Source of the DNA: an uncultured archaeon
GTDB lineage: Archaea; Aenigmatarchaeota; Aenigmatarchaeia; QMZP01
Assembly: GCA_964498245.1 (NCBI GenBank)
Contig: CAZCGK010000009.1
Span: 1,607-65,606, forward strand
Length of the DNA: 64,000 nucleotides
Direction of reading: 5' to 3'
Shown here: in pieces, positions 4,263 through 41,098 of the stretch
Layout of the letters: each line of letters opens with the position of its first letter
Numbering within the stretch: position 1 is the stretch's first letter
Made by a program: the position numbers and the translations under genes
The notes under the pieces: model-generated
Databases searched by the model: none
What the model was told of the DNA's origin: nothing
What the model saw: the letters and a program-made list of their open reading frames with translations, nothing else

Positions 4263-5375
4263 ATGGTTGTAAACATAGATCCTTGGGGAAGCGTACAGGT
4301 TGAGGATTATAACAAGCTTATAGAGGAGTTCGGTATAAAACCTTTTGAAAAATTCAGAAGTATTTTACCTGATCTTCCTGTGTTTATGAGAAGAGGTGTA
4401 GTTTTTGGTCACAGAGATTTCGAGAGAATAGCGGAATGTCTCAAAGAGGGTAAAGAATTTGCAATGATGACAGGACTAATGCCCTCAGGCAAGTTTCATT
4501 TGGGTCATAAACTGGTTGCGGAGCAGATAATCTATTATCAGAAATCGGGAGCAAAAATATTTCTCTGTGTTGCGGATATAGAAGCATACAACATGAGGAG
4601 AATGTCACTCGAAGAATTAAAAAGAATAGCCATAGAGGAATACCTTCTGAATTACATAGCCTTGGGTCTTAAACCCAAAAACTGTGATTTCTATTTTCAA
4701 AGCCAGCGATCCAAAGACGGTGAAAAATCCTCTGCATATTACAGATTGGCAGAGATCTCTGCCAGATCGGTTACTTTGAATGAAATGAAAGCCATATACG
4801 GAGATACATCTCCGGCTAAAATCGTTTCTGTTCTCATGCAGGTTTCGGATATTCTTCACCCACAGCTCCCGGAATTTGGTGGACCAAAACCGGTTATTGT
4901 TCCTGTAGGCGTAGATCAAGACCCGCACATAAGGCTCACAAGAGATATAGCTTCACGTTTGGGCTCTACATTCGATTTCATACCCCCAAGCTCAACCTAT
5001 CATAAATTCATGCCCGGTTTAAAACGTGGAAAAATGTCATCCAGCGATCCCATGTCCTATATAGCGCTTACGGATGACCCTGAAACCGTGAAATACAAAA
5101 TAATGAAGCATGCATTCTCCGGCGGAGGAAATACCATAGAAGAGCACAGAAAAAAAGGTGGAAATCCGGATGTGGACGTTGCCTATCAGATTCTGTATTT
5201 CGGTTTCGAGCCTGATGATAGAAAATTGAAAAAAATTCATGATGATTACAGGTCCGGAAAACTTCTCACCGGCGAGCTTAAGATGTATACCATAGAAAAA
5301 ATCAACAAGTTTCTCGAAAAGCATAAAGAAAAACTCGAAAAAGCAAAGGATAAGGTAGATGAGTTTTTAAACTGA
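4263..5375 (+). CDS. trpS: tryptophanyl-tRNA synthetase, archaeal type
   Basis: Shows 'GLMPSGKFHLGH' (HIGH-like) and 'KMSSSDP' (KMSKS variant). The 370-aa length is typical of archaeal TrpRS. Confidence 0.8.
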   Translation: MVVNIDPWGSVQVEDYNKLIEEFGIKPFEKFRSILPDLPVFMRRGVVFGHRDFERIAECLKEGKEFAMMTGLMPSGKFHLGHKLVAEQIIYYQKSGAKIFLCVADIEAYNMRRMSLEELKRIAIEEYLLNYIALGLKPKNCDFYFQSQRSKDGEKSSAYYRLAEISARSVTLNEMKAIYGDTSPAKIVSVLMQVSDILHPQLPEFGGPKPVIVPVGVDQDPHIRLTRDIASRLGSTFDFIPPSSTYHKFMPGLKRGKMSSSDPMSYIALTDDPETVKYKIMKHAFSGGGNTIEEHRKKGGNPDVDVAYQILYFGFEPDDRKLKKIHDDYRSGKLLTGELKMYTIEKINKFLEKHKEKLEKAKDKVDEFLN

Positions 5376-5399
5376 AAAGAAGTATAATAAATCAAGCAT

Positions 5400-5570
5400 G
5401 CGAGGGTGCCCGAGCGGCCAAATCAAAGGCCAGAGGGGCAGGACTTAAGTTTTAGAAAAAACTTAAGTGTTGATTCGCTCAAGAAGATGAGAAATCCTGT
5501 GGCTTAGAACCCTTTCGCGAGATGCGAAAGGTGGGAAGTGCCTTCCTGGGTTCGAATCCCAGCCCTCGCA
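5400..5570 (+). tRNA. tRNA-Leu (anticodon UAA inferred), 171 nt, with a roughly 44-nt intron after position 37 and a second insertion in the variable-arm region
   Basis: The acceptor 5' arm GCGAGGG pairs with the 3' arm CCCTCGC followed by discriminator A. The T-arm is CTGGG-TTCGAAT-CCCAG. The anticodon stem is CAGGA...TCCTG, with loop CTTAAG followed by an intervening sequence. The D-loop GAGCGGCCAAA resembles class II Leu. An extra hairpin, CCTTTCGC-gagat-GCGAAAGG, sits in the variable region. Confidence 0.7.
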
Positions 5571-5600
5571 TTTTTATTTTTTACGTTGCCATACCTTATT

Positions 5601-6044
5601 ATGAGTTTAATCAAATGTGAAAGCCTGAATGAATTTTTTTATGAGCAAATCGAAAAACACGGAAAGTTTCTAAGTCCAACAGCAAGATTTTATGTTTCCG
5701 AACTTCTTTCAAATCTGGGAAACCCTCAAAAGCTTATCTCCCACGCTCTGGAAGAATATACAGAAAAATCTCTTACCTTGATGCTCAAAGATGCCGTGGA
5801 GGCAGAAGATAGATTCAAAAGCTTTTATCTTCACAGAAAACTCGGTGATTTGTGTTTAGTTTTAGGAGGAATTTACAAAATACCGAATGTAAGCGATGAT
5901 CTTATTATATACCTTGGAGAGGAAGGATACAGGGGGGCATCTCTATATTATCCATGGAAAGGATTTCTTAGTGTGTATCCGGAATTATGCGAAAAATTCT
6001 CCATGACAATGGAGGCTTTGAGAAAACTTGAAATAAAAATCTAA
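5601..6044 (+). CDS. hypothetical protein (start trimmed to the internal Met, because the upstream ORF extension overlaps the tRNA)
   Basis: ORF 5538..6044; the first 21 codons overlap the tRNA 3' end, so MSLIKCESL... at 5601 is the more plausible start. Confidence 0.4.
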   Translation: MSLIKCESLNEFFYEQIEKHGKFLSPTARFYVSELLSNLGNPQKLISHALEEYTEKSLTLMLKDAVEAEDRFKSFYLHRKLGDLCLVLGGIYKIPNVSDDLIIYLGEEGYRGASLYYPWKGFLSVYPELCEKFSMTMEALRKLEIKI

Positions 6045-6271
6045 AAACACAGCTCCTGATCTTCATCCGATTCCATTATGTACCTGTAAAATGCCTTTTC
6101 CACCACTATCTGTTTTTTTGGTTTGTTGGAGATGAGGGTTACAAGTTTTTCCAGAAGACGAATTCTTTCCATAAGCTGTTGAGTCATCTGCCTGTGTATA
6201 GCATCAAGCTCCTGATTTATATCCCTGAGTTCTTCCATCATTCTTTCAAGTTCTTCAAATTCTTTTTTCAT
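6041..6271 (-). CDS. hypothetical coiled-coil protein
   Basis: 76 aa, rich in E/L/R heptads (EELERMMEELRDINQELDAIHRQM). Confidence 0.35.
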   Translation of the reverse strand: MKKEFEELERMMEELRDINQELDAIHRQMTQQLMERIRLLEKLVTLISNKPKKQIVVEKAFYRYIMESDEDQELCF

Positions 6272-6364
6272 ATAATCACTACCAAATGGTTAATAAAAAG
6301 ATTTTTAAATCTTTCGGAGCAGAAATCCAAACGATTAAATTTCTGTTATAACAAAAAATATAAT

Positions 6365-7171
6365 ATGCTTGAATCCTTTCTGGACTTCAAAGAAATAAAG
6401 AACAGACCCCATATGATGCTCATCTGGGCGGTTATAATATCCAGTATAGCTGTTCTCATAAGCGCTCAGATCTCATATAAAGTGCTTATCGGTGAAACAA
6501 TCTTTAACCTTTCTGGCCTTTTTTCGGTCTTGTTTACGATCATACCCGCGGCGTATTTTTTGACGGTAATGATAAAAAGAGAAGAAGCCCTGGAAGAGAA
6601 GGAAATAATAAGGTATCACAAGAAGAGTTTCTGGGAAAAACATAAACTCCATCTAATATGGACAAGTTTGTTTTTTATCGGACTAACCCTGAGCTTTGCC
6701 TTCTGGTGCCTTGTACTGCCAGAGGATTTTTTCCAGGTACAGCACAATAAAATAGATCAGATTCAGGGAAGGATCACAGGAGAATACATAAGAGGCGACT
6801 TCAACAGCTTTGTTAGAATAGTGTATAACAACCTTCAGGTTATGATTTTTGCATTCCTTTTCTCGCTCATATTCGGTGCAGGGGCTGTATTTATAATAAC
6901 ATGGAATGCATCAATACTTGGTGTTGCAATAGCAAGAAATTGTAAACACATAGCCGAAATTCCTCTCGTAGGTCTGGGATACCTTCCTCACGGCCTTCCG
7001 GAAATAGCCGCATACCTCCTTGCAGGTTTGGCAGGTGGAATAATATCAGCGGCTGTGATAAAGAGAAATGATTGGAGGGTTCTAAAAGTGATAATAATGG
7101 ATAGTCTGAAACTCCTTGTGCTCGCTTCAATTCTTATAGTGATAGCGGGTATAATCGAGGTTTATCTATAA
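6365..7171 (+). CDS. integral membrane protein, SpoIIM/DUF95-like
   Basis: Multiple transmembrane segments. The patterns 'IFAFLFSLIFGAGAVFIITWNASILG' and 'GLPEIAAYLLAGLAGG' resemble the stage-II-sporulation-M family. Start moved to the internal ATG at 6365 to avoid overlap with the antisense ORF. Confidence 0.45.
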   Translation: MLESFLDFKEIKNRPHMMLIWAVIISSIAVLISAQISYKVLIGETIFNLSGLFSVLFTIIPAAYFLTVMIKREEALEEKEIIRYHKKSFWEKHKLHLIWTSLFFIGLTLSFAFWCLVLPEDFFQVQHNKIDQIQGRITGEYIRGDFNSFVRIVYNNLQVMIFAFLFSLIFGAGAVFIITWNASILGVAIARNCKHIAEIPLVGLGYLPHGLPEIAAYLLAGLAGGIISAAVIKRNDWRVLKVIIMDSLKLLVLASILIVIAGIIEVYL

Positions 7172-7188
7172 AATTCAATTTTTCGAAT

Positions 7189-7704
7189 TCAGCAAAAACC
7201 GAAAACCGTAAGTATCCAGCCCACGCTGTAATACCCAGCCCACGCGAGTATAAGACCTGCCAGAGTTTTGCCCGTCAGAGTAGCAAGGAAAAACCTTTTT
7301 ATATTATAATTCATCATTCCTGCAAGAATCCCTATTATGTCAAAAGGCAAGGGTGTTGCGGCAAATAGAACTATTATCACAAATGCACCGTGTGTTTCTA
7401 TCCATTTTCTTGCTTTATTAAGAAGTTTCAGATGTTTTTTGTTTACAATCCTTCTCCCCCCTCTTCCCAAAATATAAGAAGTCATTTCTCCTATTGCAGA
7501 ACCAAGTCCAGCAACCATCCCTACAATCCAGGGATTGAATCCCGGCATACCTCCGAGAAAAAAATTCACAGCAAATGCAGGCACAGGAAAGAATATACTC
7601 ATCGACCCTATTACTTCAACCAAGAAAAGTCCCAAGTAACCCCAGGTTATTATTAGAGAATTTGCCCATTCCGCAAATCCTCCAGCAATTCCAACAACAT
7701 CCAT
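7189..7704 (-). CDS. DedA/SNARE-associated (TVP38/TMEM64) family membrane protein
   Basis: Contains 'FFPVPAFAVNFFLGGMPGFNPWIVGMVAGLGSAIGEMTSYILGRGGRR', the DedA signature. Confidence 0.7.
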   Translation of the reverse strand: MDVVGIAGGFAEWANSLIITWGYLGLFLVEVIGSMSIFFPVPAFAVNFFLGGMPGFNPWIVGMVAGLGSAIGEMTSYILGRGGRRIVNKKHLKLLNKARKWIETHGAFVIIVLFAATPLPFDIIGILAGMMNYNIKRFFLATLTGKTLAGLILAWAGYYSVGWILTVFGFC

Positions 7705-15480: not shown

Positions 15481-16797
15481 TTGATTATGCCTTTCCAACC
15501 ACCAAGAGGAATGAGAGATTTCCCTCCGGAAGTAATGATAAAGAGGATGTATGTAATCGAAAAAATCCGCGAAACCTTTGAAAGATACGGTTTTAGCCCT
15601 GTATGCACCTCAGCTGTGGAATACTGGAAAGTTCTTTCCAGAAAGGGTGGTGGAGGAGAGGCGATAAAAGAAGAGATATACTATTTTAAAGACAAGGGAG
15701 ATCGTGAGCTTGGCCTCAGATTCGATCTCACAACATCTCTTGCAAGATTTGTTTCTGGAAACCCGCAGATACCCAAACCCTTCAAGGTCTATCAGATAGG
15801 AAGGGTGTGGAGATATGATAGACCGCAGGCTGGAAGATATCGGGAATTCTGGCAGGCAGATGCGGATATAATAGGCTCTCCATTTATGGATTGCGAAGCA
15901 GAATGTATAGCTCTTGCCTCTGAATGCTTGCAAAAACTGGGCTTTGAAAATTTTGAAATAAGAATAAATAACAGGAAAGTTCTCAACGGTATGATGGAAT
16001 TTCTCGGAATAGAGAAGGAGAAACAGCCTGAGGTTTTCAGAATACTGGATAAGCTTGACAAGATTGGAGAAAACGGTGTGAAAAAAGAACTTGAGAACAA
16101 GGGTGTAAAAAACAAAACTCTGGAAGGTCTTCTTGCTTTTGCAAGAATGAAAGGAAAGCCTGAAAAGATTATTGAGGAGTGCATGCAGACTTTTGCGGGT
16201 TTTTCTGAAGCAGAGGAAGGCCTGAAGGAGCTCAGGGAAATCATAGAAAAGCTTAAACCCTACAATATTTCAGGAAAAATCCTCATTGACCTGAGCCTGG
16301 TAAGAGGTCTGGATTACTACACAGGCCCTATTTTCGAGATTGAAGCGAAAGGAAAGGAAAATTTGGGAAGCATCTCTGCAGGAGGAAGATATGATAAGTT
16401 TATTGAAGTACTGGGTGGTAAACCAACTCCGGCTGTGGGCGTGTCCCTAGGCATTGAAAGGATATTCGATATTCTTGAAGAGAAAAGCAGATTCACTCTA
16501 CCTCAAACAAAAACCGAGATTTTTGTAGTTTCCGTAGAAGATTCTTTCAGGACAGAAACTATCAAAATTGCACAGGAACTGAGAAGAGCCGGCTTTAACG
16601 TGGAAACAGACCTGATGTCAAGAAATCTGAAAAAGCAACTAGAACACATCAACAGGACCGGAATACCTTATGCCCTGTTTGTGGGACAGAAGGAAATAAA
16701 AACAGGAAGGTATACACTCAGAGACATGAACACAGGTAAGCAAAAAGAAATGTCAGTGAATGAAATAATAAAGGAGCTTGCAGATTTACGCGGTTAG
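15481..16797 (+). CDS. hisS: histidyl-tRNA synthetase
   Basis: Shows 'PRGMRDFPPE' and the motif 3 'GGRYD'. The 438-aa length fits. Confidence 0.9.
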   Translation: MIMPFQPPRGMRDFPPEVMIKRMYVIEKIRETFERYGFSPVCTSAVEYWKVLSRKGGGGEAIKEEIYYFKDKGDRELGLRFDLTTSLARFVSGNPQIPKPFKVYQIGRVWRYDRPQAGRYREFWQADADIIGSPFMDCEAECIALASECLQKLGFENFEIRINNRKVLNGMMEFLGIEKEKQPEVFRILDKLDKIGENGVKKELENKGVKNKTLEGLLAFARMKGKPEKIIEECMQTFAGFSEAEEGLKELREIIEKLKPYNISGKILIDLSLVRGLDYYTGPIFEIEAKGKENLGSISAGGRYDKFIEVLGGKPTPAVGVSLGIERIFDILEEKSRFTLPQTKTEIFVVSVEDSFRTETIKIAQELRRAGFNVETDLMSRNLKKQLEHINRTGIPYALFVGQKEIKTGRYTLRDMNTGKQKEMSVNEIIKELADLRG

Positions 16798-17297
16798 CTT
16801 TTCTGATACAGCGTTTCTAGAATGATCTTCAGAGCACGTTTTTTGCTTATTTTTCGTGTATCAATCACAACAGTTTTTGATTCTGCATCATCAAAAGTAT
16901 ACATGAGTTTTTTTATTTTTTCATCTTCAAGTGCATCACAGCGCTCACGGAATTTGTATCTTTCTGTAAGGGTCTCAAAATCCGAGGTCAATGTAAAAAT
17001 ATACGATGTATATCCGTATTTTTCAAAAAATTTTGTGAATAAATCTGTTCTTTTTTCTACAAGAAGAGAATCTCCTATAATTATATCCCACCCATCTTTA
17101 ACGAAAAAATCCCTGCATATTCTAAGTATTATCTCATATGCAAGATACTTGTCGGACAAACTGGAAGCATTTCCTCCGAAGCAGCGAACAAAGTGATCCG
17201 CATCAAACATCACAGCTTTTCCTAGGACATCTCGAAGGCATCTTGCAATCGTTGTTTTTCCCGAAGCGGGCGGACCCCTGATCAGTATGAATCTTTT
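16794..17297 (-). CDS. P-loop NTPase/kinase family protein
   Basis: Contains Walker A 'IRGPPASGKTTIA'. The roughly 168-aa kinase-sized fold suggests a start at MKRFILIRG. Confidence 0.5.
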   Translation of the reverse strand, partial: KRFILIRGPPASGKTTIARCLRDVLGKAVMFDADHFVRCFGGNASSLSDKYLAYEIILRICRDFFVKDGWDIIIGDSLLVEKRTDLFTKFFEKYGYTSYIFTLTSDFETLTERYKFRERCDALEDEKIKKLMYTFDDAESKTVVIDTRKISKKRALKIILETLYQKS

Positions 17298-17355
17298 CAT
17301 TAATAAATTAGGAAATGAGTGTGATTTATATAATTTTGATACCAAAAAATTTAAC

Positions 17356-17688
17356 ATGAACAAACAATCTATTATTGCTGAAATTCAAAAGGAGAAAAGC
17401 CTTTTGGATTCTCAGGATGTAGAAACCCTGTTCAGAGATTCTGCAAACGTTGAAAGGCTTGTTTTTGAGACTGATGAGGAGGACGAGTTGGTGGAAAAAC
17501 TCACATCCCTGAAGGATTCAAGGGCATTGCTTATAGATTGCAGAAGCGTGTCCGAAAACGTGCTGCTTCTGTATAAGAAGGTGATGGAAAATCTAAGGGG
17601 AAATATAAAGGTGATATCTTACTTCACGGTTGTGGAAAAACCCGAAAGCGAAAAGAAATACTGGGTAAGGGTTTTTGCTGAAAGGTGA
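17356..17688 (+). CDS. hypothetical protein
   Basis: ORF 17287..17688, trimmed to the internal Met to avoid overlap with the kinase gene. Confidence 0.3.
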   Translation: MNKQSIIAEIQKEKSLLDSQDVETLFRDSANVERLVFETDEEDELVEKLTSLKDSRALLIDCRSVSENVLLLYKKVMENLRGNIKVISYFTVVEKPESEKKYWVRVFAER

Positions 17689-27439: not shown

Positions 27440-30283
27440 TCATCCCTTCCAGAACCTCTTTGTTTTTGCATAATTCCTTTCAGCTCTAAGTATTGCCCTG
27501 AAAAGATCATCCCCTTCAGGCATTTTAGCAAGTATTCTTCCAGCGGTTTTAACACCAACACCCCGTCCTGCTAAGGCTATAACAGCATTTTTTCCTGAGG
27601 ACATAACCATTGCAGCAGTATCATGCATAATGTTATAATACTTTAACTCTTCCTGAGAAAGCGGAACACCCGCGTTTTTCTTTCTTACCAGCTCCTGTGC
27701 TTCAAATACATATCTTGAAGGCACAGCGCTTATCAATCCTGCAGAACATTTAGGACACCTGATTTCTTCCGGAACATCCTTCACTTTCTTTATGGTTGCA
27801 TATTCTCCGCACTGCATACAAACAAGACCCATACTGGTTTCCAAAAGTCTCTTTTTAAAGACCTCAAATATCTCCCTTTCCGGTCTCTCAGGAGCTACTA
27901 TCTCATATTTTTTCTGTATACCCATTGTTCCCATGGGCGATATTCCCTGCTTTACAGCAATCTTTATCTTATCTCTGCCTATTTCTTCTACAATCTTTTT
28001 CGCCATGGCTGTGTCCAGTTTTTCCCGCAAAACCTCATTCATAGCTTCCCTGAAAGCAGGTGTGCCTTCATAGACTTCAATTATTTTTCTTATATAACCC
28101 TTTCCAAAATCCGCATCTTTTGAGATTATACCGAATCTTTTTGCGACATGAATAAACCTCCATGCAAAGATTTCTGTTTTGGGAACAGTCTCATTTAGAA
28201 CTTCATCTATATCTTCAGGCTTTATGTTTTTCATCGCCTCAACCACATATTTCCAGTCACCAATATGCTGAAGCTTCAGCATTATCCTGTACGGATCTGT
28301 CTGCAAACCCACCGAACCTAATTTAGTCATAAGCACAGAGGCCAAAACCCTTCCTATGGTATCGTTAACAAGCGAACCCCAGCATGCATGAATAACCACC
28401 CAAGAATTTTCCTCATCACTGTAATATTCAATAAGCACATGTTTATGGTCGGGCACGTATCCCCAGGTGTTTTGCTTTTTTACGTAAGAGTATATTTTTT
28501 CCGCTACATCCTTCGATACAGGATAAAGTGACATTAACTGATTTATAATTTTATGCTTTTTCTGGGTTCTGAGCTTTTCTTTTATAAATCTCCGGATTCT
28601 TCCAACCTCCTGAGCAACTTCAAATGGAACCGGTATAAGTTCACCCTCCCATGCGGGTATTGCTCCGGCAATACCCGAAAGAGGCTCAACTATTACTTTA
28701 TTGCTTCTAACATCAAGTATCCTCCATGGTTGTCCTTTCACTATAAAAGCAGAACCGGGCTGACCATGAAGCGCGACAAACTCTGCATCGAGTGTTCCCA
28801 CAGGCTTATCCGAAACCACATCAAACACTGTATAGGTTTTCGTGTCCGGAATAACGGAAAGGTTTTCATAGTAGTGAATAAAACTTCTTTCCCTCCTTTT
28901 CAGCACAGGCTTTTTTTCGAATTTCGAATCAATCCAGATAAGTCTTAATTTTTCCAGCATCTTTGCTGTCTCCATAAAAGTCTTAAAACCCAAGTTTCTG
29001 TACGGATATGCACGTTTGATGATTTTATACGCATTCTCCACCGGAATTTTATACTCATCGAGGCTGAGCCCCAATATCTGATTCGCCAGCACATCTAGTG
29101 CGGTTCCATAGGTTTTTGTTGGTTCCATCCATCCTTTAAGAGCAAGAGAGGCGATTGCCGCAGCCTCTAAACAATCATCAGCATCTGTAGAAACTATCAC
29201 ACCTTCTGAGGTTTTTTCCAGGGAGTGTCCTGACCTCCCTATTCTCTGCAAAAGCTTGGATACCTGCCTAGGAGACATGTACTGAATAACAAGATCTATG
29301 GAACCTATATCTATTCCGAGTTCCAAGCTGGATGTGCATATAAGCGATTTTATCCTTCCATCTCGAAAATCCCTTTCAGCAGAGACCCTTACATCCCGCG
29401 AGAGAGATGAATGATGGGTCTCAACAGGAAGATTTTTATCGAAAATCTTTAATCTGGATGAAAGAATCTCGGAAAACTCACGGGTATTTGTAAATGTCAG
29501 GACGGATTTTCTTTCCCTGATCAGATCTCTTATTCTTCTTATCCTTGCTGCAATCTCGGGTGTTGCTGCTATTTTATCCGCTATGAGAACATCGATTTTT
29601 TCAGGTGCCGGAGACTCGACTTTTATGCTGATTCTTTTTCTCTTTTCCACATTTATGATTTTATATTTCCTTTTGTTCAGTGAAAAAAACTTCACAATCT
29701 CTTCAGGTGTGCCCACGGTCGCAGACATACAGAGTATCTGCGGTTCTTTTTTCAAAATCTCCTTGAGCCTTTCCAAACCAACACAGAGCTGAAGACCCCT
29801 TTTATTCGTAACAAGCTCGTGAACCTCATCTATAACTATGTAACGAATATTTTTCAGATTTTTGCGCATAAGCTTTCCTGTAAGCATTGCCTGAAGGGAT
29901 TCCGGTGTTGATATTATCATATCAGGTGGTTGTTTCACCTGTCTTGATCTTTCCGCTGGAGTGGTATCTCCGTGCCTAACACTTACAGAAAAACCAATCT
30001 TTTCTGACCACCATTTTATTCTTTTCAGTAAATCCCTGTTGAGACTTCTCAGAGGGGTTATATAAAGTATGGATATGGGCCTTGGCTTATCCCTCAACCA
30101 CACATCAAAAATGGGAAGCATTGCGGCTTCTGTCTTGCCTGAGCCTGTTTCTGATATTGTAAGCACATTCTTTCCTGCAAGAATCTCGGGAATAACACCT
30201 TCCTGAATAGGTGTGGGTTTTTCAAACCGCTTTACCACTATTTTTCTGAGTTCCGGTTCCAGTATATGAAATGCATTTACCAT
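27440..30283 (-). CDS. lhr: Lhr-family large ATP-dependent helicase
   Basis: Walker A 'TGSGKTEAA', DEVH box 'VIDEVHE' and a Zn-finger-like 'CMQCGE...CPKC' are present, with the Lhr-core architecture. 947 aa. Confidence 0.85.
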   Translation of the reverse strand: MVNAFHILEPELRKIVVKRFEKPTPIQEGVIPEILAGKNVLTISETGSGKTEAAMLPIFDVWLRDKPRPISILYITPLRSLNRDLLKRIKWWSEKIGFSVSVRHGDTTPAERSRQVKQPPDMIISTPESLQAMLTGKLMRKNLKNIRYIVIDEVHELVTNKRGLQLCVGLERLKEILKKEPQILCMSATVGTPEEIVKFFSLNKRKYKIINVEKRKRISIKVESPAPEKIDVLIADKIAATPEIAARIRRIRDLIRERKSVLTFTNTREFSEILSSRLKIFDKNLPVETHHSSLSRDVRVSAERDFRDGRIKSLICTSSLELGIDIGSIDLVIQYMSPRQVSKLLQRIGRSGHSLEKTSEGVIVSTDADDCLEAAAIASLALKGWMEPTKTYGTALDVLANQILGLSLDEYKIPVENAYKIIKRAYPYRNLGFKTFMETAKMLEKLRLIWIDSKFEKKPVLKRRERSFIHYYENLSVIPDTKTYTVFDVVSDKPVGTLDAEFVALHGQPGSAFIVKGQPWRILDVRSNKVIVEPLSGIAGAIPAWEGELIPVPFEVAQEVGRIRRFIKEKLRTQKKHKIINQLMSLYPVSKDVAEKIYSYVKKQNTWGYVPDHKHVLIEYYSDEENSWVVIHACWGSLVNDTIGRVLASVLMTKLGSVGLQTDPYRIMLKLQHIGDWKYVVEAMKNIKPEDIDEVLNETVPKTEIFAWRFIHVAKRFGIISKDADFGKGYIRKIIEVYEGTPAFREAMNEVLREKLDTAMAKKIVEEIGRDKIKIAVKQGISPMGTMGIQKKYEIVAPERPEREIFEVFKKRLLETSMGLVCMQCGEYATIKKVKDVPEEIRCPKCSAGLISAVPSRYVFEAQELVRKKNAGVPLSQEELKYYNIMHDTAAMVMSSGKNAVIALAGRGVGVKTAGRILAKMPEGDDLFRAILRAERNYAKTKRFWKG

Positions 30284-30345
30284 TCTCCCCCCTTGAAGGA
30301 GTTCGAAAGAGTGAATATATAGGAGTTTATCTATTAAAATTAAAT

Positions 30346-32787
30346 ATGCATAAAAAACTGACTCTCGGTTTTCTAATCATAATTACACTTCTCGTTAGCT
30401 TTTCTTCTGCAGAGGCTTATATTGCTCTTGATATAAACGATGAAAAGATCAATCATTCCATACACACATATCTTGACATGAATATAAGCATTATCCACGA
30501 TGTACATCTTTCAGAAGATATTGTGCTCAAAATCTACATAGATGATGAAAAGGCAGCAGTAATAGATTTAGAAGAATACCTTCAGAACCAGCAGAATTAC
30601 ACGCTTAAAACCCACATTTTCAATTACAATGTTGTGGCAGAGGGATGGAATAACTGGACTGATTATCCTTCCCAGACCTTTACATATACTGTTTCTGCAA
30701 GGGGATGGTGTGGAAGTGACTTGGGAGCATCCGATGAATGCAAAACAGCGTGTTCCTGCGATGGTGACTGCCCCGCATATCCCTGTGAATGGCATATAGA
30801 ATATCCGCAGCTTCAGGCAGAGGTTTCTGGATATGATGGATTGAAGTTCATAAAAGATGGTTTGAGCCTTATAGCACCACCTCAAGACGGCTGGATAGAA
30901 GAATGGAGTGTAAGTGTGATAGATAACACAAACGTTGAGGCAACGATGAGAGCGGCCTGCGGCGGAGAGGAATACCCTCCGGGTATAACCCGGGATAAGA
31001 CCGGATGGAACGTTGTTGGAAGAAAAATCAACACATTCTGTACAAAACAGGGAGCAGGTGCTGTTTGCAACATAGGACCGTTTAATGAAGAAAGCCTGCA
31101 GGAAGGATACAGAAAATACGGCGGCCCTTCAGTACAGGGTATTACCGGCGGTGGAGTGTACATGATCGATGATAACGGAAACATGATTTATCAGAGACCT
31201 GGTGTGGAAATATCCTCCTGGAATGGAAGCGAGGGAAAAATAGTGTTCAATGTTTACGATGCAGACAGAACCTATGTTATATTCTATTTACCGCCTGATG
31301 GTTCAGAATTCAATGAAAGCCACAGAATGTGTGCATATACAGACTATTCGGTCAAAAACTCATCCGAATGGAAGGTTTATCAAGAAGTAAGTGGAAACCA
31401 GGTCTCATATGATAAAGAATATATCAGAACACTCACAGATGACTATATAAATAACCTTCCATATCCCGATTGTCCTATACCAGATCAGAGCGAATGCAAC
31501 AGAACTATAGACATGCTCTATGTTGTTAAAACATACGACCCGGATAATGCTGTGAGTTTGAATTTTGATCCCAAAACAAAAACCGTTACAGCAAGGGTGA
31601 CAAAAATTATTTTTGCGCAGAATTATACGGAAAATGTGAGCCTTTACAGGTATAGAATATCCCTAAGCTCATTAGATTTGAACAGTTCCCATGTACTTAA
31701 AGCAGAACTGTGGAACGGATCGGTAAAGCTTTTGGAATCCTCTTCTGAGTTCTGGGTCTGTGAAGATCAGGATGAGGACGGCTACTGCGAGACATCAGGC
31801 ATATGCAGCGATAATGATCCGAGTCAGTATCCCGGAGCAAAGGAAATATGCGATGGAAAGGATAATGATTGCGATGGTGAAGTTGATGAGGATTTCAGGG
31901 ATCCTGCTAAAGTTCTTTCTGGAGAATTACCCGCATTGCTGGGCGAGGAGTGTTATAATTGGGAGGGCAGTGCCTGTGCAGGTACATGGGTATGCTCTCA
32001 AGATGGTTTGAACCTTACTTGTAATGCACCCCGTCTTCCCGGAGAACAGCCAGAAATATGTGCAAACAATATAGATGATGACTGCGATGGAGAAATAGAT
32101 GAAACCTTTGAAAGTGATGGAAAAACACCAGCGTGTGTGATAAACGAATCGTGCACACCTGGAGAAACCAAACCCTGCGGAAGCAATATAGGAAGATGTA
32201 AAGAGGGTTACAGAATATGCATAAATAATGAATGGAGCGAGTGCAGAGATTATGTCGGCCCTGTAGAAGAGGTATGCAATCGCATTGACGATGATTGTAA
32301 CGGTATTGTGGATGATGTTAATGGTGGCGAGTCCGTAGAGGAAACACATTGCAGATGCTATAATAATGGAATTCCTTCAGCAGAAATATGCAATGATATA
32401 GATGATGATTGTGATGGGAAAATAGATGATGGTATATCTTGCTGTACCGAAGGAGAAACAAGGACTTGTGGTATAAACATCGGTGTGTGCAAATCCGGAA
32501 TTCAACGATGCATTAATGGTTCATGGGGAAAGTGTGAAGGAGCAGTGTTACCTTCGGAAGAAATATGTTATGATAACCTTGATAATGATTGTGACGGTAG
32601 TGTTGATGAAAACTGCAATCCGGATATAACCTGCAGAAATGGAATCCAAGACCTCAATGAAAACGGTATCGATTGCGGTCCCTACTGTCCCAACAAATGC
32701 TTCAATTTTTTTGGTTTGGTACTGATAGCACTCGGTACCCTGATTTTAATAATATTATTCATAATGATACAGATTAAGAAGATTTAA
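30346..32787 (+). CDS. secreted Cys-rich repeat protein with at least 5 'DNDCDG-x-DE' (MopE-like putative metal-binding) repeats and a C-terminal transmembrane anchor
   Basis: Signal/transmembrane segment 'LTLGFLIIITLLVSFSSAEA'. Repeats include CDGKDNDCDGEVDEDF, CANNIDDDCDGEIDETF, CNRIDDDCNGIVDDV, CNDIDDDCDGKIDDG and CYDNLDNDCDGSVDENC. The C-terminus is hydrophobic, 'FFGLVLIALGTLILIILFIMIQIKKI'. Confidence 0.65.
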   Translation: MHKKLTLGFLIIITLLVSFSSAEAYIALDINDEKINHSIHTYLDMNISIIHDVHLSEDIVLKIYIDDEKAAVIDLEEYLQNQQNYTLKTHIFNYNVVAEGWNNWTDYPSQTFTYTVSARGWCGSDLGASDECKTACSCDGDCPAYPCEWHIEYPQLQAEVSGYDGLKFIKDGLSLIAPPQDGWIEEWSVSVIDNTNVEATMRAACGGEEYPPGITRDKTGWNVVGRKINTFCTKQGAGAVCNIGPFNEESLQEGYRKYGGPSVQGITGGGVYMIDDNGNMIYQRPGVEISSWNGSEGKIVFNVYDADRTYVIFYLPPDGSEFNESHRMCAYTDYSVKNSSEWKVYQEVSGNQVSYDKEYIRTLTDDYINNLPYPDCPIPDQSECNRTIDMLYVVKTYDPDNAVSLNFDPKTKTVTARVTKIIFAQNYTENVSLYRYRISLSSLDLNSSHVLKAELWNGSVKLLESSSEFWVCEDQDEDGYCETSGICSDNDPSQYPGAKEICDGKDNDCDGEVDEDFRDPAKVLSGELPALLGEECYNWEGSACAGTWVCSQDGLNLTCNAPRLPGEQPEICANNIDDDCDGEIDETFESDGKTPACVINESCTPGETKPCGSNIGRCKEGYRICINNEWSECRDYVGPVEEVCNRIDDDCNGIVDDVNGGESVEETHCRCYNNGIPSAEICNDIDDDCDGKIDDGISCCTEGETRTCGINIGVCKSGIQRCINGSWGKCEGAVLPSEEICYDNLDNDCDGSVDENCNPDITCRNGIQDLNENGIDCGPYCPNKCFNFFGLVLIALGTLILIILFIMIQIKKI

Positions 32788-37674: not shown

Positions 37675-38448
37675 ATGCTCAGCATTTTTGACAGTTTTAT
37701 TCTCGGTGTGATTCAGGGATTGACAGAATGGTTTCCTATCTCAAGTTCTGGACACCTTGTTCTATACCAGCAGCTCTCAGGAATTGATGTGCCTGTGGCT
37801 TTTGATGTTATGCTTCACTTCGCAACACTTGTTGTGATCCTTTTCGTGTTCAGGAAGGATATTATCTCCATACTCAGGAGTGTTGCAAAAGGAGATTTCA
37901 AATCTCCGGAAGGAAAACTCGTTCTGTTCATTCTTGCTGGAACCATTCCCACAGCTTTAATGGGATTTTTCTTTTATGATTTTTTCACATCCCTTTTCAC
38001 GAATCTCCTTTCCGTTGGGATTTCCCTGATAGTCACAGGCATGGTTTTATTCACATCGAAATTCGTTCCTGCAAGAGGTGAGATAAATTACAGAAAATCC
38101 CTTCTGATAGGTACAGCCCAGGGAATATCCCTTATACCCGGAATGTCAAGGAGCGGTTTGACCATAGGAACAGGAATCCTTTCAGGCATATCCAGAGAAA
38201 CAGCCGTGAGGTATTCATTTCTCCTTTCCATACCCGCAATTCTCGGTGCAACCCTTTTTGAGTTCAACAACCTCACAGTATCGGGTGTGGATGCTGTATC
38301 TCTTGCTATAGGCATGCTTACAGCCATGATAGTCGGATATTTCTCTCTGAAAACCCTGATATCCCTTGTCCTGAAAGGTAGGTTTCATCTTTTTGCTTTC
38401 TACTGCTGGATTGTTGGTGTGATTATAATTCTGATCTCAATGGTGTGA
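37675..38448 (+). CDS. uppP: undecaprenyl-diphosphatase (UppP/BacA)
   Basis: Contains 'GLTEWFPISSSGHL' and 'PGMSRSG', the UppP signatures. Confidence 0.85.
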   Translation: MLSIFDSFILGVIQGLTEWFPISSSGHLVLYQQLSGIDVPVAFDVMLHFATLVVILFVFRKDIISILRSVAKGDFKSPEGKLVLFILAGTIPTALMGFFFYDFFTSLFTNLLSVGISLIVTGMVLFTSKFVPARGEINYRKSLLIGTAQGISLIPGMSRSGLTIGTGILSGISRETAVRYSFLLSIPAILGATLFEFNNLTVSGVDAVSLAIGMLTAMIVGYFSLKTLISLVLKGRFHLFAFYCWIVGVIIILISMV

Positions 38449-38451
38449 GCT

Positions 38452-38976
38452 ATGGCTGAAACCCCGAACAAGGAAGGAAAATCCCTTCCCGAACTTGTCC
38501 TGATCTGCGGCCTTCCGGGAACAGGCAAAACCACAGTAGCAAGGTTTCTTGCAAGAAAAATAAACGCGGAAATAATAAGAACCGATGCGGTTAGAAAGCA
38601 AATGTTCAGAAAACCTGTATATTCAGAAGAAGAGAAATCCAGAGTCTACAACCGGGTTCTTGAAATTACCGAGAGCCTGCTCAAAAAAGGAAAAAACGTG
38701 ATAGTGGATGCAACTCTTTACAAAAAATCTTTAAGAAAGCCTTTTTACGAACTTTCTGAAAAACTCGGAACAAAACTCAAGGTAATAGAATGTATCTGTC
38801 CTGAGAAAATCCTGAAAGAGAGGCTTCGTTCCAGAAGAAATGACCTGTCTGATGCGGATTTCCAGGTATACCTGAAGATAAAAAAGCAATGGGAAGAAAT
38901 AGAGAGGGAACATATCATAGTGAATACCTCGAAAAATCTGGAGAAGCAGCTGGCGGATGAAATTTCTAATCAGTAA
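38452..38976 (+). CDS. P-loop kinase (AAA_33/zeta-toxin-like fold)
   Basis: Contains Walker A 'ICGLPGTGKTTVA' and 'VIVDATLY'. 174 aa. Confidence 0.6.
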   Translation: MAETPNKEGKSLPELVLICGLPGTGKTTVARFLARKINAEIIRTDAVRKQMFRKPVYSEEEKSRVYNRVLEITESLLKKGKNVIVDATLYKKSLRKPFYELSEKLGTKLKVIECICPEKILKERLRSRRNDLSDADFQVYLKIKKQWEEIEREHIIVNTSKNLEKQLADEISNQ

Positions 38977-38981
38977 CCGGT

Positions 38982-40007
38982 TTAACATGAACTCTCCGCA
39001 ATTTTCGAACAATACTCAAAATACCTCCTTGCAAGGGATATTGCTTTTTCCCTCTCCTCTTCAGAAATCCCCTTCTCCATCAACCTGAAGGATGTGACCT
39101 TGCCTCTCACATACGCTCTGTAGCACTTGTAAAAGTCCAGAAGCTTCTCCAGGCCTGAATCCCCGCTTTTTTCCAGGTATTTTTTCACAAAATAATCCGA
39201 AAGGGTTTTCTTTCCCCTGAACTCCACATCCATTACAAGAAAAGCAATATCGCTTGCAACATCCGAGCATGCGAACCTTTCATTAAACTCTATTGCATCG
39301 AATATCCAGACCTTGCCATCCTCAAGGAAGATATTGCCTGAGTGCAGATCTCCGTGACACCAGAGTACTTTTCCTTCTTTAATCCTATCAAGGAAAAGCT
39401 TTCGGTTTCTCTCCAAAAATCCTTCCACATATTGCTTTACCATCCTGAAACTTTTTTCATCTATGGTTTTTCCTAAAAAGCCTCGGGTCTGCCTGAAATT
39501 TTCCTCCCAATTAAACCAGATCATTTCAGGAGAACCGAATCTTTCTATTCTCCTTCCTCTTTCGGTTTTTTCGTAAAATCGGAGAAGTATATCTGCTATT
39601 TTTTCCATATCCCTTTTGCAAACCTCACCTCTTTCAAGCTTCTCGCTCATCAAACACTCCTGAGGAATTTCCCTCATCTTCACAACATATTCCAGAACCT
39701 TTCCCTCTCCACCGAGCTTTATATTTCCAGCCTTCTCCGCAAGAGGAAGCACTCCAAGATATATCTCTGGAGAAAATCTTCTGTTTATCTCCACCTCTCT
39801 TTCACAGAAATATTTTCTCTTTTCCAGTGTTGTGAAATCCAGAAATCCGAAATTCACGGGTTTTTTTATTTTATAGGCGAATTTCCCTGTTAGAAACACC
39901 CAGGATATATGCGTCTGAACAATCCTTATATCCTCAACACTCTCATCATAGGTCTCAGGCCTTTTCATTGCTTTTAGGAGGAGGTTTTGGTTCATTTTGA
40001 AAGACAC
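38982..40007 (-). CDS. aminoglycoside-phosphotransferase-like (protein-kinase-like fold) phosphotransferase
   Basis: Catalytic loop 'HGDLHSGNIFL' followed by 'IFDAIEF' (DFG-equivalent), typical of the APH/choline-kinase family. Confidence 0.6.
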   Translation of the reverse strand: MSFKMNQNLLLKAMKRPETYDESVEDIRIVQTHISWVFLTGKFAYKIKKPVNFGFLDFTTLEKRKYFCEREVEINRRFSPEIYLGVLPLAEKAGNIKLGGEGKVLEYVVKMREIPQECLMSEKLERGEVCKRDMEKIADILLRFYEKTERGRRIERFGSPEMIWFNWEENFRQTRGFLGKTIDEKSFRMVKQYVEGFLERNRKLFLDRIKEGKVLWCHGDLHSGNIFLEDGKVWIFDAIEFNERFACSDVASDIAFLVMDVEFRGKKTLSDYFVKKYLEKSGDSGLEKLLDFYKCYRAYVRGKVTSFRLMEKGISEEEREKAISLARRYFEYCSKIAESSC

Positions 40008-40015
40008 GTTTAATT

Positions 40016-41044
40016 TTAATACAATAATTCGGTCAGCTCACCAAGTATTTCATCGTGTTTCCTTTTTGCCTTTTGCCTTTGTTCTTCAGGAATTTCGGGA
40101 TTTTCGTATATCTTTTGAAGCTCTTTAAGCACATGTGTTACAGGGTATCCTCCTCTATACAGCTCGATCTGTTCTTCGATATATTTGTTCAATGCACGAG
40201 GCACCGCATTCCGCATCTCCTCCCGCAATTCCTTAGGAATTCTTTTATCCTCTGAGAATTCCTTAAGATATTCCCATTCTCCCCTTTCAATGAGTTTTTT
40301 TCCTACATATACTCTTATTTCTTCGGACAGTTTATCGTTTGTTATCAAATATACAATCCAGCTTCCTTCGAACCTATTGAAACCTTTGTCAGCAGCGATT
40401 CTTCTCTTTTCTATCGGAATACTTTCATTCGCAACTACTTCGAACAAAAGCTCTCTTTTATTCTCATTAACACATTTTTCGATATACCTATCAACAGCCT
40501 CCGGGACTTTCTCGGATGCGTATTCTTTCATTCCTTCAGGAACCACCGGATTATCCCTTAAGTATATTAGAGACCTCCATTCTCCTTCCTCGGTGAGGCA
40601 CTCGATGGCTTTTCTGCTTCCATTTATAACCTCATTCAGTGCTTTTTCCCCTATTTTTCTGTTTTCAGAAGTTCTAGCTGTATTTATAAGATTCGTGTAC
40701 CGCTTCTCTTTACCCCAATTCTTAATAATCTCATCACACGTATTTTCTATATCTTTCTTTTTTCTCTTAGAAATATCAAGTTCATACAATCCCAGAAGGT
40801 CTTTTACATTCCCTTCTTTAACGTATTTCTTAATAGCACTGTCCACCGCGTCTGGAAACCTTTCTTCCGCTTTTTTCCTTACTTCTTCCGGTGTATGTGG
40901 ATATTTTCTCAGTTCTTCAAGACGCCAAATATCACCTTCTTTAACATAACTTTCAACAAGCCTAGACCCTGCATCCTTTCTTATTTTTTCCAAAGGATGA
41001 TACTCCATCAAAGCATAAAGATCTGTGTAACTTATCTTCTTCAT
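40016..41044 (-). CDS. hypothetical protein with three internal repeats of roughly 90 aa
   Basis: Repeats 'EGDIWRLEELRKYPHTPEEVRKKAEERFPDAVDSAIKKYVKEG', 'EGEWRSLIYLRDNPVVPEGMKEYASEKVPEAVDRYIEKCVNE' and 'RGEWEYLKEFSEDKRIPKELREEMRNAVPRALNKYIEEQIE'. It is 8 nt upstream of, and co-oriented with, the phosphotransferase gene. Confidence 0.45.
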   Translation of the reverse strand: MKKISYTDLYALMEYHPLEKIRKDAGSRLVESYVKEGDIWRLEELRKYPHTPEEVRKKAEERFPDAVDSAIKKYVKEGNVKDLLGLYELDISKRKKKDIENTCDEIIKNWGKEKRYTNLINTARTSENRKIGEKALNEVINGSRKAIECLTEEGEWRSLIYLRDNPVVPEGMKEYASEKVPEAVDRYIEKCVNENKRELLFEVVANESIPIEKRRIAADKGFNRFEGSWIVYLITNDKLSEEIRVYVGKKLIERGEWEYLKEFSEDKRIPKELREEMRNAVPRALNKYIEEQIELYRGGYPVTHVLKELQKIYENPEIPEEQRQKAKRKHDEILGELTELLY

Positions 41045-41098
41045 TTTAACTCCACCTACTAATAACTAGGATGTTAATTTTTAAAACCTTAACCGGCT

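Follow-up and report, generated by a model that had tools for sequence, protein, structure and literature searches.

We analysed a 64-kb stretch of DNA from an uncultured archaeon (hereafter the window), in which three adjacent genes encode a P-loop kinase of the AAA_33 type, a phosphotransferase with the aminoglycoside phosphotransferase (APH)/choline kinase fold, and a protein made of three repeats. A sequence-only reading of the same DNA had described the three open reading frames (ORFs) and had placed them in one functional cluster. Positions, sizes and strands were all found as described (Table 1), and the kinase and APH genes are convergent and lie tail-to-tail, with 5 nt separating their stop codons. 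Judged by their domains and motifs, these two genes represent the split form of a widespread APH-like plus AAA_33 fusion architecture that is already annotated. We consider it very likely that the kinase and the phosphotransferase make up a functional pair that has been conserved, and that the repeat protein has nothing to do with this pair.

The distance between the repeat gene and the APH gene depends on the start codon that is used. The 8-nt gap of the sequence-only reading is correct when measured to the GTG at 40007. However, the public gene call (337 aa) and the N-termini of homologues both point to the ATG at 39995, which is the more likely start, and the gap then becomes 20 nt. On the other side of the locus, the uppP (BacA) gene ends 3 nt before the kinase start, on the same strand. 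In the shared 3' region of the kinase and APH genes (38977-39010 and 38920-38981), the first oligo-T tracts able to stop either transcript fall inside the opposite gene, and it is probable that the two mRNAs overlap at their 3' ends, over tens of nucleotides.

Table 1. Features discussed in the text. Positions are those of the window, except where a locus label is given.
Feature	Position	Strand	Remarks
uppP (BacA) gene	37675-38448	+	
P-loop kinase gene	38452-38976	+	174 aa; AAA_33/polynucleotide kinase (PNK)-like; kinase half ('kin') of the split module
APH/choline kinase/MtnK-fold phosphotransferase gene	38982-40007 (GTG start) or 38982-39995 (ATG start)	-	341 or 337 aa; 'APH' half of the split module
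Gene of the predicted all-alpha repeat protein	40016-41044	-	342 aa; lineage-specific neighbour of the module
Super-repeat 3 core, ~aa 242-314	40103-40321	-	z = 8.5 against repeat 2; z = 4.5 against repeat 1
Super-repeat 2 core, ~aa 141-205	40430-40624	-	z = 11.5 against repeat 1; z = 8.5 against repeat 3
Super-repeat 1 core, ~aa 25-88	40781-40972	-	against repeat 2: score 90, shuffle mean 29, z = 11.5
Putative promoter and ribosome-binding site of the repeat gene	41050-41086	-	TATA-like TTTTAAAAATT at -42..-32 and Shine-Dalgarno-like AGGTGGAG at -13..-6 from the ATG; read from the sequence
Conserved ~340-aa protein of Chloroflexota/Dehalococcoidia loci	L031:3730-4752, L050:6862-7890, L037:1504-2538, L043:470-1495, L046:3276-4319, L055:2245-3393, L070:6571-7629		between MtnP and the APH/kinase module

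Conservation of the kinase and the APH-fold phosphotransferase

The assignment of the kinase to the AAA_33 type was borne out by Pfam (AAA_33, 2.3e-29; KTI12, 7.7e-16). Its Walker A motif reads GLPGTGKT. Across 28 aligned homologues, residues D45, R48, D86, R95 and R124 do not vary; this set is the active-site pattern of PNK-like enzymes such as T4 PNK. With archaeal PSTK (L-seryl-tRNA(Sec) kinase), Clostridium Pnkp and T4 PNK the protein shares the Walker A motif, an Asp-x-x-Arg after strand 2, a D-[AG]-T motif and a lid arginine. However, it is a bare 174-aa domain, without the tRNA-binding C-terminal domain of PSTK or the phosphatase and ligase domains of Pnkp. The solved structures nearest to the kinase-family profile were archaeal PSTK (2.5e-20), the kinase domain of Clostridium Pnkp (6e-16) and APS kinase. 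Orthology with PSTK or PNK was considered and rejected, as the kinase scored 42.9 bits against an NCBIfam cut-off of 290.5 for PSTK and 34.1 bits against a cut-off of 750 for Pnkp. The window also encodes another AAA_33 P-loop kinase, a divergent paralogue with a length of 189 aa, at 16794-17363 on the minus strand (Pfam, 6.6e-10).

The phosphotransferase contains the motifs HGDLHSGN and IFDAIEF, on which the sequence-only reading had based the APH/choline kinase fold, and it barely passes the Pfam APH model (24.1 bits against a cut-off of 23.2). It has more than 8000 homologues, counted as clusters at 90% identity, many of them fused to an AAA_33 domain. The closest homologues, at 55-61% identity, are labelled Aenigmarchaeota, and the family is strongly conserved across archaeal and bacterial phyla (50-60% identity). 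Its most conserved stretches, which we used as scan patterns, are two family-specific N-terminal motifs, THIS[WYC][VI]FLT and YK[IV]KKPV[ND], present in the window protein as QTHISWVFLTG and AYKIKKPVNF. Among 52 aligned sequences, no change was seen at K46 and K48 (the lysines of AYKIKKP), E71, H218-G219-D220, D237, E240 or F241, and N225 is kept in at least 90% of them.

Structure prediction agreed with the fold assignment. An AlphaFold model with 52 homologues as input (pLDDT 94.5) has the APH/ChoK/MtnK fold, and a Foldseek search of the PDB returned MtnK (2pul) first at 1.8e-6 and APH(2'') at 2.9e-6, followed by ethanolamine/choline kinases, glucosamine kinase and homoserine kinase II. All of the top 50 PDB matches were small-molecule kinases of the APH/ChoK clan, and protein kinases were absent from them (0/50). 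A comparison of the APH-family profile with PDB sequences gave nothing significant; the best match was the protein kinase KSR, at E = 0.04. Because the catalytic residues are all kept in both proteins, the kinase and the phosphotransferase are probably both active enzymes that work together.

We also compared the APH gene with that of a near-identical strain, represented by a contig of 98.5% identity. There, 28 of the 31 mismatches are packed into ~400 nt of the APH gene (L097:1571-1964, equivalent to window ~39250-39640), and the two copies of the gene show 18 synonymous and 8 non-synonymous codon differences. This cluster of mismatches looks like a local recombination tract.

The linkage of the two genes was surveyed by scanning one genome per species; 80 archaeal and bacterial loci were kept and classed by ORF calling and a hidden Markov model pipeline. 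The kinase and APH were fused in 34 of these loci, so the fusions to which the sequence-only reading had appealed do exist elsewhere. In 17 loci the kinase gene lies directly downstream of APH on the same strand, and in 5 it lies directly upstream, again on the same strand. Three loci have convergent and abutting genes, three have convergent genes ~0.9 kb apart, and three have both genes nearby on the same strand, and 15 have no kinase at the locus, several of these being on truncated contigs. The two are thus fused or linked in 65 of the 80 loci, which upholds the functional link that had been suggested for them.

Many homologues of the phosphotransferase are fusion proteins of 503-528 aa, with the AAA_33 domain at the C-terminus, and the window kinase is 31-38% identical to that domain over its full length (E down to 4e-35). 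Proteins of this kind (~500-530 aa) are named 'bifunctional aminoglycoside phosphotransferase/ATP-binding protein' by NCBI, and the architecture corresponds to COG2187, to which Rv2004c of M. tuberculosis is assigned. Both domains are common to the fusions and the window pair, as are the motifs THIS[WYC][VI]FLT, YK[IV]KKPV[ND], HGDLHSGN, D-A-I-E-F, Walker A and TDxxRK; identity to the window is 52-55% in the APH domain and 31-38% in the kinase domain. Unlike in the fusions, the domains in the window are encoded by separate genes, on opposite strands and tail-to-tail. A module-specific profile, for which the window kinase was combined with its stand-alone homologues and with the kinase domains taken from eight fusions, matched the window kinase at 1.1e-71, whereas the other AAA_33 paralogue of the window reached only 1.8e-8.

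The tail-to-tail layout is also found in other archaea. Among the stand-alone homologues of the window kinase, the best (P0141, 56% identity) lies tail-to-tail with an APH orthologue, with a 6-nt overlap, and tight pairs with a spacing of -6 to +9 nt were found in L020 (Methanobacteriota), L026 and L033 (Hydrothermarchaeales); counting L008, no fewer than four archaeal loci besides the window have this layout. The kinase and APH genes of L011 share one strand and overlap there. A neighbour-joining tree built on the APH domain places the convergent layouts in one archaeal region, and fused and split forms are mixed elsewhere; this interleaving points to repeated fusion and fission. In most Aenigmarchaeota loci, the gene that directly adjoins the 3' end of APH is one of ~106 aa (L002:7014-7334) or a DHO_dh gene, at the place where L008 (4188-5008) and the window have the kinase. 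This arrangement suggests that the kinase may have been cleanly lost or relocated within the Aenigmarchaeota.

Gene neighbourhoods and the proposed role of the pair

The neighbours of the APH gene were examined within 6 kb on either side in 86 loci, including the window; they were clustered and identified with Pfam and NCBIfam. The neighbours included AhcY (adenosylhomocysteinase) in 22 loci, MetK (S-adenosylmethionine (SAM) synthetase) in 10, MtnP (methylthioadenosine (MTA) phosphorylase) in 9 and MtnA (methylthioribose 1-phosphate (MTR-1-P) isomerase) in 6. An MtaD/DadD-like deaminase and Dph2 (diphthamide synthase) were each found in 5 loci, and a phosphogluco/phosphopentomutase-type mutase (PGM) and a PHP-domain phosphatase or nuclease were each found in 8. 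Dph2 is a SAM-cleaving enzyme that releases MTA.

The order of these genes varies between lineages. It is MtnA-MtnP-x-...-[APH-kin]-AhcY-MetK-PGM in Chloroflexota, MetK-AhcY-APH-kin in Pseudomonadota, MetK-AhcY..kin-APH in Thermodesulfobacteriota, APH>PHP<kin<AhcY> in Bathyarchaeia, AhcY<APH> in Aenigmarchaeota and MtaD..APH-kin-Dph2 in Thermoplasmatota; in L011 it is MtaD-MtnP..kin-APH, followed by MtnA and AhcY. The association with the SAM cycle was seen across at least five lineages with differing gene orders. By a rough estimate, the chance of finding one given single-copy gene within 12 kb is about 0.5-1% in a genome of 1-3 Mb. Because the association persists through rearrangement across phyla, inherited synteny is an unlikely explanation for it.

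From the embedding of the module among SAM-cycle and methionine-salvage genes in other genomes, we infer that its substrate is a nucleoside or ribose by-product of SAM use. The pair would phosphorylate the nucleoside or ribose moiety that is freed when SAM is used, and there are two candidate routes. In the first, which would follow the S-adenosylhomocysteine (SAH) hydrolase AhcY, adenosine would be converted to AMP and possibly on to ADP. In the second, the substrate would be ribose or a 5-substituted ribose (phosphate) derived from MTA phosphorylase or a nucleosidase. By either route, the nucleotide pool would regain the adenosyl part, and products of AhcY or MtnP that act as inhibitors would be cleared. 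Salvage of SAM by-products is, in our view, a plausible role for the module, with a likelihood approaching even. More tentatively, the pair may carry out one reaction, or two in succession, that is widely distributed in the SAM cycle or methionine salvage and has gone unrecognised. It could, for example, consist of an adenosine kinase outside the PfkB family that is coupled with a nucleotide kinase, or be a ribose-phosphate kinase pair feeding phosphoribosyl pyrophosphate. Such a step would be present in DPANN and other anaerobic archaea, in Chloroflexota, in Desulfobacterota and, with Rv2004c of M. tuberculosis, in actinobacteria, and the archaeal halves would be held together as abutting convergent genes.

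The family-level association with the SAM cycle goes beyond the sequence-only reading, and it would point to substrates that can be tested. The family behind the locus is conserved between archaea and bacteria and its biochemistry is unassigned; its recurrent proximity to SAH hydrolase, SAM synthetase, MTA phosphorylase and MtnA offers a testable lead for a missing kinase step in the recycling of SAM by-products, and this lead applies to anaerobes and to archaea with reduced genomes. Rv2004c, a gene of the M. tuberculosis dormancy regulon, may belong to the family; if so, the same lead would extend to this functionally uncharacterised gene. A previous paper describes Rv2004c as having high similarity to COG2187, which is a domain of unknown function (PMC1950094).

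MtnK (PDB 2pul/2olc) shares the APH/ChoK fold with the window phosphotransferase, and genes of methionine salvage, MtnA among them, are associated with both. The catalytic loop of MtnK, HGDLHTGS, looks similar to HGDLHSGN of the window protein. The two proteins differ in that they have ~13% identity and a TM-score of ~0.45, and in that the window protein matches no MtnK family model and has a distinct set of N-terminal motifs. Furthermore, MtnP, the usual partner of the module, makes MTR-1-P directly, so that a methylthioribose kinase would be unnecessary. An MtnK orthologue was rejected as an identity for the APH protein; no MtnK model was among its NCBIfam matches, and MtnK was absent from the profile matches to PDB sequences at E <= 1.

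In eight loci (L021, L023, L027, L037, L050, L055, L076 and L078; e.g. L055:10887-11804), the PHP-domain gene either separates the APH and kinase genes or directly adjoins them, and its product may be a third component of the module there. The best NCBIfam similarities of this protein, which are below the cut-offs, are to 3',5'-nucleoside bisphosphate phosphatase and RNase RNM.

Several observations weigh against a module that salvages SAM by-products. The frequent PHP neighbour, being pAp phosphatase/RNase RNM-like, also fits a nucleic-acid target, and the enzymes nearest in sequence to the P-loop half are the tRNA and polynucleotide kinases PSTK and Pnkp. The absence of MtnK models from the NCBIfam matches counts in the same direction, and the first place of MtnK in the Foldseek search is not discriminating; its E-value and that of APH(2'') are too close together for a substrate of the phosphotransferase to be chosen from them. 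AhcY, MetK, MtnP, MtnA and MtaD are all absent from the 64-kb window, so the metabolic link of the window's own module is by homology only. In the literature, we found no functional study or substrate assay of the APH plus AAA_33 family. Finally, the 80 loci of the linkage survey are those most similar to the query and no random sample of the family, and most Aenigmarchaeota orthologues of APH are without an adjacent kinase; the two genes are thus not strictly obligate neighbours. Weighing these points together with the neighbourhoods, we favour, with moderate confidence, the overall explanation of a conserved two-kinase module that recycles SAM by-products and stands next to an unrelated repeat gene.

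Among the alternatives, the one that survives best is that the module acts on a macromolecule, either as an RNA- or tRNA-end-modifying or repair kinase or as a regulatory protein kinase over SAM-cycle enzymes. The kinship of the kinase profile with PSTK, the Pnkp kinase domain and T4/mammalian PNK would suit such a target, and so would the PNK-type D-x-x-R and lid arginine of the kinase and the scores of the PHP neighbour on the RNase RNM and 3',5'-bisphosphate phosphatase models. The KSR match of the APH profile would suit a protein target, but at E = 0.04 it is only the best of the PDB sequence matches. However, the genomic context is metabolic (AhcY, MetK, MtnP, MtnA and PGM), and genes for RNA ligase, Hen1 or tRNAs were not among the neighbours; the structural neighbours of the APH protein are all small-molecule kinases; and AAA_33 itself includes many kinases of small molecules (gluconate, APS and 6PF2K). 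Altogether, these observations argue for small-molecule substrates, and we regard a macromolecular target as unlikely.

Two further observations concern genes near the module in other genomes. In seven Chloroflexota/Dehalococcoidia loci, a conserved ~340-aa protein is encoded between MtnP and the APH/kinase module (Table 1). Its H-C-C-G and P-x-C-G motifs are invariant and are reminiscent of the zinc ligands of MetE-type (core) methionine synthases. Searches for a core methionine synthase identity gave no sequence match in Pfam, NCBIfam or the PDB, and the methionine-synthase paper of Price et al. mentions no kinase (PMC7857596). In L046, the MtnA ORF (706-2304; IF-2B, 1.5e-96) runs on into an IS200/REP-associated tyrosine transposase domain (Y1_Tnp, 3e-11), which is either a real fusion or a read-through of ORF calling.

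The repeat protein and the adjacency of the three genes

The repeat gene lies between the gene for RNA polymerase subunit D and the APH gene. Nearby on the minus strand is an archaeal string of genes for ribosomal proteins and RNA polymerase, with S17, L14, L24, S4e, L5, S14, S8, L7Ae, a NusA-like KH protein and RpoD, and the three genes of the locus are at its end. The repeat gene tentatively has a promoter and a ribosome-binding site of its own (Table 1), and similar boxes, TTTAAA/TTTATAAA, are present ~25-35 nt before the starts of other genes in the window. A weaker TATA-like box, TATTAAAA, precedes the APH ATG by 19-26 nt and may serve the APH gene as a separate promoter. Co-transcription of the repeat and APH genes, as proposed in the sequence-only reading, is possible.

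The three repeats of the protein are real. Smith-Waterman scores between the repeat segments were above those of all 300 shuffles (z = 11.5, 8.5 and 4.5); a plain self-BLAST showed no repeats. The period is ~101-116 aa, and not the roughly 90 aa that had been described, and every super-repeat consists of predicted helical hairpins with a recurring P-x-E-x-R/K-x-x-A unit. As had been noted, the protein has no obvious family. Pfam gave none, the HEAT/ARM profile did not match even at E <= 10, and a word-indexed search returned one 100% match, i.e., the protein itself. An exhaustive phmmer search of 1.84 billion representatives found 18 weak relatives, all of which are repeat proteins sharing N-x-x-[IV]-P-E-x-[IV]-R-x-x-A, and some of these distant relatives weakly match archaeal UPF0147 (PF03685).

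A single-sequence AlphaFold model of the repeat protein (pLDDT 83.9) is all-helical, with 17 helices. Foldseek matched this model weakly to designed helical repeats and to HEAT/ARM proteins such as CAND1, importins and Armc8 (E >= 4e-4, TM <= 0.29). The predicted all-alpha solenoid may be a feature in common with HEAT/ARM proteins and with UPF0147, a family of small archaeal helical-repeat proteins. However, the repeat protein matches no HEAT, ARM or UPF0147 model, and its super-repeat of 101-116 aa, with helices in a long-short-long-short order, is not canonical HEAT. We regard the repeat protein as a probable HEAT/ARM-like solenoid that is specific to the lineage and stands outside the kinase/APH module.

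The sequence-only reading had proposed a single functional cluster of three genes, with the repeat protein serving both kinases as substrate or scaffold. Some features of the locus would fit this proposal: the repeat gene ends 8-20 nt before the APH start on the same strand, the adjacency is retained in the 98.5%-identical strain, and alpha-solenoids are commonly protein-binding scaffolds. However, a homologue of the repeat protein was found in none of the 91 loci that carry kinase or APH genes, and the two best distant relatives of the protein have no kinase nearby. The closest APH orthologues (~55-61% identity) have AhcY upstream, no repeat gene and usually no kinase. The adjacency is kept only in the contig of the near-identical strain, whose repeat gene (1029 nt) shows just 2 differences from that of the window. 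Furthermore, the box TATTAAAA could give the APH gene a promoter of its own, and the APH fold resembles small-molecule kinases and not protein kinases. The three-gene cluster is largely refuted by this missing co-conservation, and we consider it very unlikely; with relatives that stand alone, the role of the repeat protein as substrate or scaffold falls as well. The repeat protein also matches no well-characterised family. Taken by itself, the locus is an unremarkable split case of an architecture already annotated, and the proposed three-gene system fails.

Even less likely is a coincidental juxtaposition, in a compact genome, of a kinase and an APH protein that are independent enzymes. It is true that convergent genes are not co-transcribed, that the kinase gene is apparently in an operon with uppP (3-nt gap) and that most Aenigmarchaeota APH genes have no kinase neighbour. 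However, the two are fused or linked in most of the surveyed loci (65/80), the tail-to-tail layout appears again in L008, L020, L026 and L033, and the window kinase scores 1e-71 on the module-specific profile. The least likely alternative is that APH is a resistance kinase for aminoglycosides or other antibiotics or xenobiotics, as might be supposed from homologues named 'aminoglycoside phosphotransferase family enzyme' in sources, a weak NCBIfam APH(3') match (2e-4) and Foldseek matches that include APH(2''), APH(3') and APH(9); however, the protein is far under every resistance-family cut-off (e.g. 21 against 205 bits for NCBIfam APH_3p), and its identity of 50-60% across archaeal and bacterial phyla and its setting in housekeeping SAM-cycle operons suit a core metabolic enzyme and not an accessory resistance gene.

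Some minor observations were made on other parts of the window and in one related locus. Scans of the whole 64-kb window for tRNAs and Rfam families gave no match. In L009, a giant beta-helix/Hint-domain protein of 7691 aa is encoded beside a kinase homologue (5212-7600). An 838-aa ORF at 30271-32787 on the plus strand of the window adjoins GlnRS/GluRS, and the public call at this position is an 813-aa product with a Cu-binding MopE domain.

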